The notes under the pieces are model-generated. The model was not told the DNA's origin. It saw only the letters and a list, made by a program, of their open reading frames with translations, and searched no databases. The translations under genes and the position numbers were made by a program. A DNA stretch of 64,000 nt, taken from assembly GCA_013388845.1 (NCBI GenBank), contig JACAEN010000009.1:13767-77766 (forward strand), written 5' to 3'. The stretch is from Chloroflexota bacterium (GTDB taxonomy: Bacteria; Chloroflexota; Dehalococcoidia; GIF9; AB-539-J10). Position 1 is the first letter of the stretch; the number at the start of each line of letters is the position of its first letter. Positions 9,079 to 63,811 of the stretch are shown here, in pieces.

Positions 9079-9153
9079 CGCGCCTAGAGGGATTCGAACC
9101 CACGACCCCCGGTTCCGAAGACCGGTGCTCTTGCTCCGCTGAGCTATAGGCGC
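9079..9153 (-). tRNA. tRNA-Arg (anticodon TCG)
   Basis: Hand-folded reverse complement: 7-bp acceptor stem GCGCCTA/TAGGCGC, D-stem GCTC/GAGC, anticodon stem CCGGT/ACCGG with loop CTTCGGA, T-loop TTCGAAT. The T-stem has one T-T mismatch. CCA is not encoded. Confidence 0.8.
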
Positions 9154-9163
9154 AAAAATAAAG

Positions 9164-9240
9164 TGGGGTGAACGGTGGGATTTGAACCCACGATCTCCAG
9201 GGCCACAACCTGGCGCCTTAACCACTGGGCTACGCTCACC
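9164..9240 (-). tRNA. tRNA-His (anticodon GTG) with encoded G-1 and encoded CCA
   Basis: Reverse complement reads GGTGAGCG...CCAGG-TTGTGGC-CCTGG...GTGGG-TTCAAAT-CCCAC-CGTTCAC-C-CCA. The extra 5' G pairs with C73, which is typical of bacterial tRNA-His. Confidence 0.9.
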
Positions 9241-10973: not shown

Positions 10974-11072
10974 CCAGAGAAAATACCAAGCACGAAACAA
11001 TTCCCAATACCAAAGCAAAAAACTTTTTGCTCATTTGAGATTTGGATTTGTTTAGGATTTAGAGATTGGAAA

Positions 11073-15631: not shown

Positions 15632-16432
15632 TTACTCTTCCTCCTCATCCTCATCCTGCTCCCAAATAGGCTCGGTGAATTGGTCAATAAATTCAGCCGT
15701 AACTCTCTTCGCTATTCTATCCATCTCCTCGTCCACCTGCTCAGCCAGATGACTAAGCTCGGTCAAGTCCAGTGTAATTCCCAACATTTTGATCAGAACA
15801 CGAAGCACAGCTAGGGAAGCTTTGGGATTTGCTATTTGTGTGGCATACGCCGGCACTTCCCCCAGCAAGCAAATGCCCTCCATCCCCCTTTCCTTGGCCA
15901 TTCCCAATATCAATCCGTTCAATCCAGCGATGCGAAGGCTGCCTCTCAGAATCACATTATGTTTGCTCAACTCGTCAATTAAGTCAGAAGTTGTCGCTGC
16001 TCCCCAAACCCTTATCTCTTCACTATGGTGGATGCGTGTTACTGCAGCAGCACAACTATACACCCTGGCCACCCTAAGCCTTTGCGCGACATCCAACACA
16101 CAGTTAACCAGTTCGTATCCTTTGAAACTAGGCTGTTCTTCACCGATAAAAATCACCAAGCTTTTATCCCGATCAGATCGGGACTGCCAATAATAAAACT
16201 TGCTCTCAGGAAAACGAGGGCTTTCCACCACGTTGTCTTTGACTGTGACTCCCATTGGTTCAAAAAAGTGAATAGGTTCAATCTCCCCTATTTCCGTAGC
16301 ATTTAGCTTCTCCACAAGATACTTCGCTGCGGTTAGGGAAACGTCGCCAATGCCTGGCCAGGAGGCGAGCATGGCACAATTCTTAGGGCGCGGTTGTTTA
16401 TAAAGTTTATAAAGCCTTATTATGTCTTTCAT
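15632..16432 (-). CDS. PAC2-family (proteasome-assembly-chaperone-like) protein with an acidic C-terminal tail
   Basis: LASWPGIGDVSLTAAKYLVEKL resembles the PAC2-family N-terminus. 266 aa. C-terminus DEDEEEE. Confidence 0.45.
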   Translation of the reverse strand: MKDIIRLYKLYKQPRPKNCAMLASWPGIGDVSLTAAKYLVEKLNATEIGEIEPIHFFEPMGVTVKDNVVESPRFPESKFYYWQSRSDRDKSLVIFIGEEQPSFKGYELVNCVLDVAQRLRVARVYSCAAAVTRIHHSEEIRVWGAATTSDLIDELSKHNVILRGSLRIAGLNGLILGMAKERGMEGICLLGEVPAYATQIANPKASLAVLRVLIKMLGITLDLTELSHLAEQVDEEMDRIAKRVTAEFIDQFTEPIWEQDEDEEEE

Positions 16433-16751: not shown

Positions 16752-16860
16752 CTGTCATTGCGAGCGAAGCGTGGCAATCTCATTGGCTAAATTCCAAACA
16801 AATTGTAGTGCGACCTTTTAAGGTCGTACAATCCTGCCCTTACACAAGGCTGAAGCCTCG
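16752..16860. repeat. Repeat/hairpin block: a copy of the GTCATTGCGAGCGAAGCG dispersed repeat followed by nested palindromes (TGTAGTGCGACC...GGTCGTAC...GCCTCGCACTACA)
   Basis: Read directly from the sequence. This is the same repeat word seen at 28100-28168, 61794-61857 and 62398-62450. Confidence 0.6.
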
Positions 16861-17798: not shown

Positions 17799-17964
17799 TA
17801 TAGTCCGGCTGCGCAAAGCCCACCCCTGCGGCAGTTATGAGTGGGAAGTGGTAAGGGTGGGCGCCGACATCGGCCTTAAATGCCTCAAATGCCAGAGAAG
17901 GGTGCTTCTAGCCAGAAGTACTTTTGAGAGAAGGCTGAAAAATGTGGTTGCCAAGAAAGATTGA
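17774..17964 (+). CDS. DUF951-family small protein. Its start overlaps the pyrF 3' end; the ORF-track entry from 17608 is an over-extension.
   Basis: [58 protein letters not shown] is a classic DUF951 sequence. Confidence 0.7.
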
Positions 17965-18042
17965 CTGTTTGGCAAAAAGAACACCCCACCTGATTATGCT
18001 TTACTTCAAAGGGAAGATATGGTATAAAAGCCACAAGGGAAA

Positions 18043-18565: not shown

Positions 18566-18652
18566 AAATGCCTCAAATGCCAGCAAAGGGTGCTTTTGGA
18601 GAGAAATGTGTTTGAGAGAAGGGTGAAAGAATTTGTCTCCAAAAGTGACTAA
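18566..18652 (+). repeat. Degenerate second copy (~80% identity) of the last ~87 nt of the DUF951 gene (17878-17964), keeping an open frame KCLKCQQRVLLERNVFERRVKEFVSKSD* but with no start codon
   Basis: Direct comparison of the two segments: AAATGCCTCAAATGCCAG...GGGTGCTT...TTTGAGAGAAGG...TGAAA. Confidence 0.7.
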
Positions 18653-18870
18653 CTGACCAGCTTCGCGACAATAAGAAGCCCCCTGCAATGGTTTGTGTAG
18701 TGAGGGAACAAAACAAGTTAATGTGCAACATTCCAGGCTTTTGTTGCACGAGCTGCACATTCTGGACGATTGTTCAACATTTTGAGGTTCGCTATAGCCA
18801 AATTTGGGCACACCAAAGCGTAGCCGTATTCCGCTATTATCAGATGATATTATATGAAGTCCCTGCCCTG

Positions 18871-28099: not shown

Positions 28100-28168
28100 T
28101 GTCATTCTGAGGAAGCATAGCGACCGAAGAATCTGAGAGATCCTTCGCTTCGCTCAGGATGACAAGAG
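28100..28168. repeat. Inverted-repeat, MITE-like copy of the GCTTCGCTCAGAATGACAAG repeat family (TGTCATTCTGAGGAAGC...GCTTCGCTCAGGATGACA)
   Basis: The two arms are near-perfect reverse complements. The word recurs at 16752, 61794, 62398 and 63669. Confidence 0.7.
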
Positions 28169-60658: not shown

Positions 60659-61213
60659 CTAAAGTGTGAATACAAGCACGATGAAGATTATCCATAGCAT
60701 TATTAGTATCCAAACTATAGATCTTGATCCTTCAAATCCCCGTGGCGGCGCGTACTTAGGGAACCTCTTCCATAAGAATTTCCACCATCCATAGCGTGGG
60801 TACTGCTCATTAAGCTTCTTGTATTTCTCCTTCTCTTCCTCTGTCAATCCATCCCAATGGTCGAGACTCCAGGCTATCTTATTTTTCCGCATTCCCAATT
60901 CGTCCTCTATTTCACGCATCCTTTCATAGTTGATACTAGTGAGAAATTGCATTCTATTTAACCAGCGTTTCCAAAAGTGAAGAATCGCGATTATCCCTGC
61001 ACCTAGTACCAAGACTAAGCATCTAATATTCCTTTCAAGAAGCGAACTACCTGTCATGCTATATATCACTGCTCCCAATAATGCCACATTGACAGACATG
61101 AAAACGCTGGTAGCGATCCATACTTGACTCCCGATGGAATCGTTATGTTGCTGGCAAACCTCATACTCCTTAAGTAAGACCTCTTGCTGATTTCGTTCCA
61201 CTTTATCTTTCAT
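60659..61213 (-). CDS. Hypothetical 3-TM membrane protein inserted between carA and carB
   Basis: 184 aa. Hydrophobic segments around aa 35-55, 68-86 and 165-184. A charged helical region lies in between. No recognised domain. Confidence 0.5.
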   Translation of the reverse strand: MKDKVERNQQEVLLKEYEVCQQHNDSIGSQVWIATSVFMSVNVALLGAVIYSMTGSSLLERNIRCLVLVLGAGIIAILHFWKRWLNRMQFLTSINYERMREIEDELGMRKNKIAWSLDHWDGLTEEEKEKYKKLNEQYPRYGWWKFLWKRFPKYAPPRGFEGSRSIVWILIMLWIIFIVLVFTL

Positions 61214-62394
61214 TTCTCCCTCACCATCTCCAGAAATCTTTCAAATAGATACATGTTGTCCCAAGGGCCAGGGGAGGCTTCGGAGTGGTATTGAATGGAT
61301 AGAATGGGCAACTCTCGGTGGCGGAGACCCTCCACCGTGCCGTCGTTTAAGCTTATGTGGCTGACCTCCAGTCCCCCTTTCAAAGTATCGGCGTGTATGG
61401 CGTAGCCATGATTTTGAGCGGTGATATAGACTCTGCCCGTAGCTAAATCCCGCACAGGATGGTTGCCCCCACGATGCCCGAATTTGAGCTTAAAAGTCTG
61501 GGCCCCCAAGGCTTTACCTATGAGCTGATGCCCCAGGCATATGCCCATTATCGGCTTTTTACCTATAAGATTTCTTACCGTCTCCGCTATGTCATCGAGA
61601 AGGGCAGGGTCACCGGGGCCCGGGGAGAGAACAATGCCATCGGGATTCAGGGCTAGGATGTCTTTTGCTGAAGCGGTGCATGGGATGGCGGTTGCTTGGC
61701 AGCCCAAGTGACTCAGGATGCGCAATATGTTGTATTTCAAGCCATAGTCGATAACCAAGATATGAGATTGCGGAGCCTGTTCCGAGCGTGAGCGAGGAAT
61801 CTCGCCCAGGCTGCTTCGGCTTCGCTTCGCAACCGCTGACGCTCCTCGCAATGACAGATAAGGCAGGGGCACAGTGGCAGGCGCACGGCATTGCCATTCA
61901 TATGCCTTCTTGGTGCTAACCTGACGAACAAAATTAACAGAATCATATCTGGGTAAGGCCTTTAGCTCTTCTGACGCCTCTTCAATGGTCATCTCCGAAC
62001 TGAGAATGCCCATCATCACTCCAGTTGACCTCAGGTGCCGAGTTAAGGCACGGGTATCTATGCCGCTGATGCCAGGAATGCCATAAGCCAGTAAGAACTC
62101 GTGCAAAGTGCGAGTGCTTTGCCAGTGACTAGGGCGAGGGCAATATTCTCGGACCGCTAAACCTCTGACCTGAATTTGCTGGGATTCAAAATCGGAGTCG
62201 TTGATGCCATAGTTGCCAATCAAAGGATAGGTAGGGACCAGGATTTGACCAGCGAAGGACGGGTCGGTAAGCATTTCCTGATAACCGGCCATGCTGGTAT
62301 CGAAAACTACCTCACCATAGGTAGTAGCCTGAGCGCCAAAGGCCTCGCCTTCGTAAACCGAGCCGTCTTCGAGAACTAAAATCGCCTTCTTAAC
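61210..62394 (-). CDS. carA: Carbamoyl-phosphate synthase small subunit (glutamine amidotransferase). Start at MVKKAILV; the ORF-track extension to 62460 is translated repeat DNA.
   Basis: GATase triad region (GICLGHQL; ...HGYAI...) and an N-terminal CPSase small-chain domain. Carries a ~43-aa in-frame insertion at 61762-61890. Confidence 0.9.
   Translation of the reverse strand, partial: VKKAILVLEDGSVYEGEAFGAQATTYGEVVFDTSMAGYQEMLTDPSFAGQILVPTYPLIGNYGINDSDFESQQIQVRGLAVREYCPRPSHWQSTRTLHEFLLAYGIPGISGIDTRALTRHLRSTGVMMGILSSEMTIEEASEELKALPRYDSVNFVRQVSTKKAYEWQCRAPATVPLPYLSLRGASAVAKRSRSSLGEIPRSRSEQAPQSHILVIDYGLKYNILRILSHLGCQATAIPCTASAKDILALNPDGIVLSPGPGDPALLDDIAETVRNLIGKKPIMGICLGHQLIGKALGAQTFKLKFGHRGGNHPVRDLATGRVYITAQNHGYAIHADTLKGGLEVSHISLNDGTVEGLRHRELPILSIQYHSEASPGPWDNMYLFERFLEMVREK
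61762..61890. repeat. Copy of the GCTTCG...CGCAATGACAG repeat family inserted in frame in the carA inter-domain linker (encodes ...CRAPATVPLPYLSLRGASAVAKRSRSSLGEIPRSRSEQAPQS...)
   Basis: The nucleotide word GCTTCGGCTTCGCTTCGC...CTCGCAATGACAG matches the other copies. The encoded peptide sits between YEW and HILVIDYG, where carA homologs have only a few residues. That homolog comparison is from memory. Confidence 0.6.
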
Positions 62395-63811
62395 CATGAG
62401 ATTCTTCGCTTCGCTCAGAATGACAAGGAGTGCGCTCAGAATGACAAGGGATGGAGGCAAAACGCCTTCTTAGTAAGTCATCCATATAAACTATCCTGCC
62501 ATTTGCTATGGTGGCCATTACCTTGCCCTTAAACCTATAGCCATCGTAGGGAGTGTTTTTGCCTTTGGAGGCGAAATTGTGGCTATCCACTACCCATTCC
62601 CGGTCAGGGTCAAATATGGTGATATTAGCTGGGGCGCCTGCCTTTAAGGTGCCCAGTTCACCATTTCGACCAATGACCTTCGCTGGCTCATAAGTTAGCT
62701 TAGAAATTAGCTGGGCAAGGCTTATTTCGCCGCGGTGCACCAAGCTCATAAGGCAGCCAAGAGCGGTTTCCAAGCCGCTGATGCCAAAAGCCGCTAGCTC
62801 TAGCGGACAGTTTTTATCTATCAGGGTATGTGGTGCGTGGTCGGTGGCGATAGCATCGATTACGCTGTCTCTAAGTCCTTTAATTAAGGCTTCGACATCC
62901 TCTTTAGTGCGCAGGGGCGGGTTTACTTTGGCATTGGTATCAAAGGGTTTGTTGGGCGACTCGCCTGCAATTCTCTCTTCGGTTAACGTCAGGTGGTGGG
63001 GTGTGACCTCAGCGGTTACTGAAATCCCTTCTTCCTTGGCGCGGCGAATGAGCTCTACAGAGCCTTTGGTGCTGACATGGGCAATATGAAGTCTGGCCTT
63101 GGTCAACTTGGCCAGAATCAAGTCGCGGGCTACCATGACCTCTTCAGCAGCGGCGGGAATTCCTTTCAGCCCCAACTTGGCAGATACCTGACCTTCATTT
63201 ATGACTCCATTGTTGCTCAGCGTCTTATCCTCACAGTGGTCAATGATTGGCAAGCCCAGGTCTCGGCTATACTCTAGGGCACGACGCATAAGCTGCGAGT
63301 TTGCTACAGGGTTACCATCGTCGCTGAAGCCAACCACTCCAGCTCGAGCCAGTGCGGCCATATCAGTTAATTCCTCACCTCGTCTACCGTTGGTGATACA
63401 GCCTATGGGAAGAACAGCAACCAAGCCATCTTGGCTCGCTTTTCGCTTCAACCAATCTACAGCAGCCGGGTCATCTAAAGGAGGTTCGGTATTTGCCATA
63501 CAACAGACGGTGGTAAAACCGCCTATGGCGGCGGCTTTTGTGCCTGTGGCGATGGTTTCCTTATCCTCAAAACCTGGCTCTCGGAGGTGGCAGTGAAGGT
63601 CTATAAAGCCGGGGCAGATGACCAGTCCTGTGGCATCGAGATTCTGTGCTGTCTCTTGGCTATGCTCAGGGCTTCGGCTCAGAGTGACAATGCCTCCTAT
63701 CTGCACAATCTTGCCCCCAGCAATAAGCAAGTCACCAACCCGGTCTATGCCCTGGCTGGGGTTGATTATACGGCCACCACGGATAAGCAGAAACATAGCC
63801 TTTTTATTCAT
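62390..63811 (-). CDS. pyrC: Dihydroorotase (class I). The real start is possibly at MFLLIRGG. The C-terminal ~20 aa are repeat-derived.
   Basis: IDLHCHLREPG metal-binding motif and ...DHAPH... motif. A small repeat-derived insert (GGCTTCGGCTCAGAGTGACAATG, 63669-63694) sits in the N-terminal region. Confidence 0.85.
   Translation of the reverse strand: MNKKAMFLLIRGGRIINPSQGIDRVGDLLIAGGKIVQIGGIVTLSRSPEHSQETAQNLDATGLVICPGFIDLHCHLREPGFEDKETIATGTKAAAIGGFTTVCCMANTEPPLDDPAAVDWLKRKASQDGLVAVLPIGCITNGRRGEELTDMAALARAGVVGFSDDGNPVANSQLMRRALEYSRDLGLPIIDHCEDKTLSNNGVINEGQVSAKLGLKGIPAAAEEVMVARDLILAKLTKARLHIAHVSTKGSVELIRRAKEEGISVTAEVTPHHLTLTEERIAGESPNKPFDTNAKVNPPLRTKEDVEALIKGLRDSVIDAIATDHAPHTLIDKNCPLELAAFGISGLETALGCLMSLVHRGEISLAQLISKLTYEPAKVIGRNGELGTLKAGAPANITIFDPDREWVVDSHNFASKGKNTPYDGYRFKGKVMATIANGRIVYMDDLLRRRFASIPCHSERTPCHSERSEESHG
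62398..62450. repeat. Tandem copy of the repeat family (GAGATTCTTCGCTTCGCTCAGAATGACAAGGAGTGCGCTCAGAATGACAAGGG) at the pyrC/carA junction
   Basis: Read directly from the sequence. In two frames it supplies the C-terminal tail of pyrC (...SIPCHSERTPCHSERSEESHG) and the spurious N-terminal extension of carA. Confidence 0.7.

Follow-up and report, generated by a model that had tools for sequence, protein, structure and literature searches.

A REP-like palindromic repeat translated in frame within the inter-domain linker of CarA in one clade of Dehalococcoidia

Palindromic repeats related to the carA element

Among short bacterial palindromes, the CGTC superfamily of repetitive extragenic palindromic (REP) sequences is characterized by a tag that is often TGTC, stems starting with AT, a 3-nt tail, frequent head-to-head dimers and no linked transposase (PMC3733652), and it includes in-frame intragenic copies such as RPE-4 and RPE-6 of Rickettsia (PMC3733652, Di Nocera et al. 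2013). In-frame REPs and other repeats turned into protein are already known from Rickettsia and others. Here we describe such a repeat in a 64,000-nt stretch of DNA from a Chloroflexota bacterium of the Dehalococcoidia (contig JACAEN010000009.1), hereafter referred to as the window, in which a 93-nt palindromic element is translated as part of carA, the gene for the small subunit of carbamoyl-phosphate synthase. Judged from its sequence, the element is to be filed as a putative member or variant of the (C/T)GTC-tagged REP kind, and not as a MITE (miniature inverted-repeat transposable element). Taken as a whole, the observations are best explained, with a probability of about 0.8, by a (C/T)GTC REP-type repeat that joined the carA reading frame, with ancestral entry, later remodelling and constraint at the level of the nucleic acid.

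The units described here and the CGTC superfamily have in common the (C/T)GTC tag at one end, of which both forms occur, a stem beginning with AT and closed by its reverse complement, a short unpaired tail of 3 nt (though not of the same sequence), the occurrence of head-to-head dimers with outward tags, in-frame copies and no known linked transposase. A 22-nt core, ATTGCGAGCGAAGCGAAGCAAT (CGTCATTGCGAGCGAAGCGAAGCAATCCA), is identical in Novosphingobium plasmid copies, where the tag is CGTC and the tail CCA; on plasmid pSA1 of Novosphingobium resinovorum the identity is 26/26 and the core occurs at at least 40 places on the megaplasmid. The core was also matched in Methylosinus, Methylobacterium and plasmids of Nostocales. 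The Dehalococcoidia units differ from CGTC REPs in a highly variable interior that hosts nested hairpins, and in host and location, as Chloroflexota are not among the hosts listed for CGTC repeats and the copies of the clade are mostly intragenic and all in sense orientation. Head-to-head dimers predominate among CGTC REPs; here one was found in the window (28100-28164), pairs were found in outgroup loci, and the clade carries mostly single intragenic units.

The behaviour of the element resembles that of Rickettsia palindromic elements (RPE-1, and RPE-4/-6, which are CGTC-4/-1), which lie in frame in housekeeping genes and add 10-50 residues at permissive surface positions: in both cases a palindromic repeat sits in a conserved open reading frame (ORF) and is absent from orthologues, here those of the outgroups. 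The carA element belongs to a different sequence family, host and gene; several cassette versions of it take turns at one codon from species to species, and it is better conserved than synonymous sites. REPs and bacterial interspersed mosaic elements (BIMEs) of Escherichia coli are likewise short imperfect palindromes in mosaics with other short motifs, transcribed with the flanking operon, but they carry a GTAG tag, are extragenic and are associated with REP-associated tyrosine transposases (RAYTs), whereas the present units are tagged with TGTC and lie mostly inside ORFs, and no RAYT was seen. MITEs of bacteria (such as Correia/NEMIS and the QMITEs of Coxiella) are also small, non-autonomous, dispersed and sometimes in frame within genes, but have terminal inverted repeats derived from insertion sequences (ISs) and target-site duplications, neither of which is evident at the carA element, with its unit of only 28-36 nt. 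Integron attC sites show a resemblance only, being imperfect palindromes with conserved ends, a variable centre and one orientation; the carA element is without R/L core boxes, cassette genes or a nearby integrase. A literature search with the head sequences gave chance matches only, and searching the library turned up no paper on REPs of Dehalococcoidia.

Against this background, the carA repeat stands out in being old, unusually conserved and swapped for other repeat versions at one codon. Its most notable features are this cassette polymorphism, the sense-only intragenic distribution and the low substitution rate. It is a clean example, open to dating, of how a DNA repeat, selfish or structural, came to be read as part of an essential enzyme, with the empty state preserved in outgroups and more than 10 alternative filled states in one clade. 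The assignment would extend the CGTC/TGTC REP family to Chloroflexota, as one family that some lineages carry outside genes and a sister lineage carries almost entirely within them, in sense orientation. Should selection on the hairpin account for the low substitution rate, functional nucleic-acid elements would be hidden in coding sequence. On the practical side, proteins predicted from metagenomes receive spurious shared "domains", as well as C-terminal extensions, from such repeats.

The repeat-derived segment of CarA

The carA product, starting with MVKKAILVLEDG, was aligned with E. coli CarA structures (E = 1e-99) over both domains in two blocks, and the segment in question falls between these blocks. 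The protein is identical to database entry P0001 (from a Chloroflexi metagenome-assembled genome), for which precomputed Pfam assignments are PF00988 and PF00117, i.e. the CPSase_sm_chain N-domain and the class-I GATase domain. The frame is open throughout 61762-61890, the span reported in an earlier sequence-only note on this DNA, without stop or interruption. The linker from W168 to the GATase strand I-L-V-I-D-Y-G is 43 residues in length, while the equivalent stretch is 9-15 aa in 120 outgroup database proteins. CarA loci were sampled from 80 species-representative Dehalococcoidia genomes; in 52 outgroup species (CarA 61-71% identical), the Y.W strand is separated from the [HYN][IV]VV.D.G strand by 8-14 residues, except for three odd cases. 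In E. coli CarA, about 20 residues lie between AYSW and the first GATase strand, and the few residues given for this distance in the earlier note are thus only roughly right. No homologous segment, which would have spoken against the earlier note, was found in unrelated lineages.

The excess of the window linker over outgroups is 31 aa, and the repeat-derived DNA is exactly 93 nt or 31 codons, reading TGTCATTGCGAG...GCAATCTC on the carA strand (Table 1). The claim that its length is divisible by three holds, but the insert of 129 nt and 43 aa originally proposed was too long: a repeat does lie inside it, and the 34 nt that encode QCRAPATVPLPY are clade-typical, occur in every allele, evolve quickly (differing between species by 0.17-0.25) and are ordinary linker without repeat origin. 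The repeat copy is located right at the start of the GATase strand. Tryptic peptides from the translated segment would include SSLGEIPR and SEQAPQSHILVIDYGLK.

Table 1. Positions of carA, of the parts of its linker and of the other repeat units in the window
Feature	Position	Strand	Basis or remark
carA, glutamine-hydrolysing carbamoyl-phosphate synthase small subunit, 395 aa	61210..62397	-	match to E. coli CarA structures; identity to P0001
Composite REP-like element in carA frame, 93 nt, 31 codons, encoding LSLRGASAVAKRSRSSLGEIPRSRSEQAPQS	61764..61856	-	head/tail family match; absence from outgroups; non-carA metagenome copies
Head of the element: tag TGTC, 5' stem ATTGC, GAG	61845..61856	-	12/12 identical to the 16753 copy and to units at related loci
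Interior module GAGATTCCTCGCTCACGCTCGGAACAGGCTCC, 32 nt	61772..61803	-	invariant in window, L006, L009 and L010
Tail of the element: 3' stem GCAAT and CTC, closing against the head	61764..61771	-	head/tail matching; outer stem closed in DNA fold
Non-repeat part of the linker, encoding QCRAPATVPLPY	61857..61890	-	in all clade alleles regardless of cassette
Unit TGTCATTCTGAGCGAAGCGAAGAATCTC (62398-62425) and extra head (62435-62446), encoding C-terminal tail of pyrC	62398..62446	-	
Repeat-derived stretch of 52 nt within pyrC, in the loop that precedes the DATG...PGFIDLHCH motif (DATGLVICPGFIDLHCH; …VTLSRSPEHSQETAQN…)	63638..63689	-	
Single unit TGTCATTGCGAGCGAAGCGTGGCAATCTC, spacer upstream of pyrF	16753..16781	+	
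Head-to-head dimer, tags outside, divergent intergenic spacer	28100..28164	.	DNA fold -14.5 kcal/mol, z = -3.6

The 93-nt element starts with TGTC-ATTGC, ends with GCAAT-CTC, and is composed in order of a forward head, TGTCATTGCGAGGAGCGTCAGCG..., the 32-nt module GAGATTCCTCGCTCACGCTCGGAACAGGCTCC and the tail GCAATCTC. On its reverse complement, the module has the form of a degenerate inverted unit (CTGTTCCGAGCGTGAGCGAGGAATCTC), and the window allele is a composite, one forward unit with an interior that carries a nested degenerate inverted unit. The 32-nt interior gave 39 exact matches in metagenome contigs, 21 of them in the carA linker and 18 at other loci. These 18 copies always have the same head, module and tail, and are intergenic where checked; therefore, the whole composite is a dispersed element. 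Outside carA, the module was not found among the related Dehalococcoidia loci searched, its dispersal being seen only in the metagenome contigs. The central claim of the earlier note holds, namely that the inter-domain linker of CarA contains a dispersed repeat, shown here to be palindromic, that is read in frame. The likeness to the window copies cited in its support (at 16752, 28100 and 62398) is real, but these are simple units and not composites: similarity of the carA copy to 16753, 28100/28164 and 62398-62446 is confined to the 12-nt head and 8-11 nt of tail, and the copy at 62398 is not intergenic but lies inside the 3' end of pyrC. Intergenic 93-nt composites (L092, L095, L097, L105, L112, L113 and L117) were observed about 35 nt upstream of a conserved TGGTATAAT box of extended -10-like type.

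The general form of the unit, as deduced from the window and 88 related loci, is [C/T]GTC, a 5-nt stem, GAG, an interior, GAA, the complementary stem and CTC. All units open with [CT]GTC, both TGTC and CGTC forms being found at the carA site. In a basic unit of 28-36 nt the interior is a small hairpin, often GCGAAGC, and the simple fold consists of 5 bp, G.A/A.G, 2 bp and a GAA loop, or nine positions counting mismatches. GCGAAGC is an instance of the GCGNAGC mini-hairpin DNA motif, the stability of which is known to exceed by far the predictions of nearest-neighbour models (PMC13037366). In many units the interior is long and nested, and some interiors are perfect hairpins within the outer stem. 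Covariation of the stem was demonstrated by a cross-table of heads and tails, as a MAFFT alignment of the 28-nt and 29-nt classes lacked the required gap. Of 67 heads with ATTGC, 51 are followed by GCAAT within 30 nt and two by AGAAT, and of 32 with ATTCT, 22 are followed by AGAAT and none by GCAAT. Six complementary stem variants were identified, ATTGC/GCAAT, ATTCT/AGAAT, ATCCT/AGGAT, ATCGC/GCGAT, ACCCT/AGGGT and ACTCT/AGAGT, the last four being rarer. None of the three sense frames of the unit contains a stop, and the antisense strand has TGA in one frame with the other two open. The motif CTCRSAATGACA, with at most one mismatch, occurs 8 times in the window against 0.95 expected, and 0/100 shuffles reached 8. 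The window holds seven units, at 16753 (+), the inverted pair 28100/28164, and 61856, 62425, 62446 and 63689 (all -).

The encoded segment was modelled with AlphaFold. A first run with 52 close homologues was useless (mean predicted local distance difference test, pLDDT, 44), and with 143 sequences mean pLDDT was 71 and the predicted template modelling score (pTM) 0.74. Residues 172-206 were placed below pLDDT 50 without regular structure, between the strand at 166-168 (YEW) and that at 212-217 (HILVID). Residues 303-360 likewise fell below 50, and low pLDDT is therefore not specific evidence of disorder. The disordered surface loop anticipated in the earlier note is consistent with the model without being proven by it; as modelled, the peptide is probably a flexible surface loop without function of its own.

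Age, versions and distribution of the repeats

Repeat-derived sequence is present at the same codon in 28/28 clade species (CarA at least 74% identical) and in 120/120 of the closest database homologues, and no empty site was detected among either group. The site is without repeat in all of 120 more distant database homologues and in all but three of the 52 more distant species. Alleles free of the insert, for which the earlier note would have looked among relatives, are thus confined to more distant Dehalococcoidia. The same structure is found in more than 100 independent assemblies. From this distribution, it is inferred that the insertion is ancestral to one Dehalococcoidia clade, and not private to this genome.

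At least 10 cassette versions were recognized at this one codon, some from unrelated palindromic repeat families. They include a 36-nt single-unit version (peptide LSLRGASATKQS), the 93-nt composite with the peptide of the window, 29-nt simple units read in another frame (SLRAERSNL), units with other interiors, and a version in which the 5' part is replaced by an unrelated palindromic repeat, CCTCTCCC..GGGAGAGG..GGTGAGGGTGA, with the tail GAAGCAATCTC retained (SPLKGEDKGEG or TQTLS..GRGLPH..SPLKGE). The 36-nt and 93-nt alleles align at head and tail and differ by 57 nt; they share the interior CGTCAGCG, which is specific to the carA site, just as CGAAGTGACG is specific to the pyrC/carA junction and CGTAGCGACG to other loci. 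In L041 and L057, Cys-rich CarA forms of 385 aa, a different insert, a Cys-rich 25-aa segment PPCDTCDLRVKCFTGDTCLFGRE..., occupies the same place in the linker, and in L047 part of the linker is similar to a further repeat peptide (PLSVSERGLRGEG).

Between species, the repeat differs by 0.054 in the 36-nt allele, 0.056 in the 93-nt allele and 0.085 in alleles with the other repeat type, and its third codon positions by 0.06-0.07, figures that are ascertained and biased downward by the grouping of alleles by similarity. Outside the linker, carA differs by 0.06-0.10 at codon positions 1 and 2 and by 0.30-0.35 at position 3. In all, divergence of the repeat within versions is 4-8%, compared with 28-35% at synonymous positions. 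The junction unit between pyrC and carA differs by 0.041, against 0.14-0.15 in its flanks (all positions) and 0.278 at codon position 3 of the first 150 nt of carA next to it. The repeat DNA thus changes far less than the synonymous sites of carA, and to call it merely tolerated is too weak. The alleles encode unrelated peptides in differing frames within the unit (SLRGASATKQS, SLRAERSNL, SPLKGEDKGEG); therefore it is DNA or RNA, and not protein, that is conserved, and the constraint appears to be on the nucleic acid, as a hairpin or recognition sequence, rather than on amino acids.

The surroundings of the pyr operon, about 0.6 Mb in the clade, were surveyed for closed units, taking ORFs of at least 120 codons as long. 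Of 66 closed units, which represent only about 10-12 independent orthologous sites, 61 were in sense within long ORFs (42 internal, 15 forming C-terminal tails, four near the start), five were outside long ORFs and none lay antisense within one; among random 30-mers, 92.6% fell in a long ORF. In outgroup loci of the same neighbourhood, 23/26 units were outside long ORFs, in both orientations and often as inverted pairs.

Two repeat-derived segments lie in pyrC of the window. A unit together with an extra head provides the codons for the last approximately 20 residues of pyrC (…PCHSERTPCHSERSEESHG). This junction unit stops one base short of the carA ATG, and the two genes share an overlap of 8 nt. 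The junction in relatives is occupied by one or another of three different palindromic repeat families, with ...TCTC|ATG nearly always at the end. The repeat-derived segment in the loop before the pyrC motif (Table 1) is replaced in relatives by other repeat versions of up to 35 aa (in L009), and in outgroups the pyrC loop is shorter and without repeats.

Explanations of the carA site and neighbouring features

The proposed history would begin with one entry at the C-terminal end of the CarA inter-domain linker in the ancestor of the Dehalococcoidia clade. The repeat may have survived because the linker is tolerant of length, the sense unit is free of stops in all frames and only versions with a multiple of three nucleotides are viable. 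The site would then have been remodelled repeatedly, the 36-nt and 93-nt alleles keeping the interior CGTCAGCG, and other alleles having their 5' part swapped for unrelated palindromic repeats with the GAAGCAATCTC tail kept.

A number of observations weigh against one or another part of this reading, in addition to the downward bias of the within-type figures and the low model confidence at residues 303-360. With respect to the REP assignment, CGTC REPs have the tail consensus CCA while the Dehalococcoidia units have CTC, sometimes CCC or CCG; and the former have stems of 8-9 bp and loops of 4-5 nt, the carA family 5 bp with G.A mismatches and the GCGAAGC mini-hairpin. No transposase was identified, and no Y1 (RAYT) gene was present among 10 small window ORFs scanned with Pfam. 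With respect to the hairpin, single-unit folds are weak by nearest-neighbour calculation (-2 to -3 kcal/mol, z about 0) and the fold of the 93-nt element is not significant (z = -1.1), so that thermodynamic prediction alone gives the structure no support. With respect to conservation, the 8-nt tail, which can be compared across 34 species whatever their cassette type and thus provides an unbiased measure, differs by 0.124 (22/34 exact), which is less than the approximately 0.17 averaged over the gene, though not dramatically so. Finally, in a carA tree built without the linker, the cassette types lie intermingled within the clade's crown, and flank distance is 0.173 within types and 0.175 between types (permutation p = 0.34), although in a nearly star-like crown this test of shared cassette ancestry has little power. 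The result is compatible alike with retained ancestral polymorphism, recurrent switching and cassette-limited exchange.

The low divergence might accordingly be a matter of youth, the cassettes being overwritten from other copies (by gene conversion, template switching between hairpins or re-insertion) or exchanged by short recombination tracts. The scattered types and equal flank distances mean that repeated replacement or cassette-limited recombination could explain the low divergence without selection, and the number of versions at one codon, with unrelated families among them, the alternation of the same three repeat families at the pyrC/carA junction and the occurrence of the composite at other loci as possible donors all point the same way. 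The distinct interiors of the carA, junction and other copies are, however, kept across species and would be erased by overwriting, and no extra similarity of the flanks is seen within 40 codons of the cassette. Renewal as the source of low divergence is regarded as a serious but doubtful explanation. The site-specific interiors favour purifying selection on the hairpin or recognition site, and the scattered types favour frequent renewal of cassettes.

Another possibility is that the hairpin is itself a functional cis-element in coding sequence, under purifying selection as RNA or DNA and acting as an mRNA structure at a domain boundary or gene junction, or as a site for a REP-binding protein. 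In agreement with such a role, third codon positions in the repeat are as conserved as first and second ones, 61/61 intragenic copies are in sense even though two of the three antisense frames are open, in most species the junction copy stops precisely at the carA ATG, and the carA copy is placed exactly at the start of the GATase strand. On the other hand, quite different repeat alleles appear interchangeable, the predicted stabilities are unremarkable, and the bias in orientation could stem from the mechanism of insertion or from repeated counting of the same 10-12 or so orthologous sites. A functional cis-element is considered unlikely. A broader scenario, in which the REP family moved from spacers into reading frames, its hairpins became selected cis-elements of coding DNA, constrained both by the frame and by nucleic-acid structure or recognition, at domain boundaries and pyr operon gene junctions, and a hairpin-directed process swaps cassettes at fixed codons, is rather speculative and given still less credence.

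The MITE-like transposon of the earlier note, jumping recently into carA of this genome and persisting as a neutral passenger loop, is very improbable. The element is indeed palindromic, dispersed and in frame, and its peptide, with many S, R, A, G and P residues, is modelled at low confidence, but the site is filled in all 28 species and 120 closest homologues without an empty allele, the 28-36 nt unit lacks terminal inverted repeats of the IS type, and the repeat diverges by 4-8% where synonymous sites diverge by 28-35%. None of the alleles shows a consistent direct repeat on either side of the element; a very short target duplication is possible, the empty site being unalignable at the nucleotide level. 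A hairpin with a (C/T)GTC tag is REP and not MITE architecture. A native clade-specific linker with coincidental likeness to the repeat, or an assembly artefact, is hardly credible: CarA linkers do vary elsewhere (the Cys-rich L041 and L057, E. coli), but the 12-nt head and 8-nt tail are identical to other window copies and to those of another phylum, the 32-nt interior recurs exactly at intergenic loci, and more than 100 independent assemblies show the same structure. Readings as a MITE, intein, pseudogene or assembly artefact were rejected on these grounds.

Between carA and carB, a 184-aa membrane protein of the 8xMP family (PF24838) is encoded at 60659-61213 (-). In relatives this place is empty or filled with one to three unrelated ORFs, and looks like a variable insertion slot in the pyr operon. 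Searching the window with Rfam at the gathering threshold gave no match at the repeats, the sole matches being two adjacent tRNA genes at 9079-9239 (-). A second family of small palindromes, TCCCGAYNNNATCGGGA, is found at 16167, 27886, 46056 and 57331 (four sites against 0.01 expected), and its hairpin also serves as the interior of REP-like units in related loci. In addition, AT-rich repeats of about 43 nt (ATTTGGATTTGTTTAGGATTTAGAGATT...) lie in spacers in both orientations, at 11040, 23012, 24728 and 27926, and downstream of pyrF there are two direct repeats of 90 nt each (17878-17967 and 18566-18655), 76% identical and 688 nt apart.

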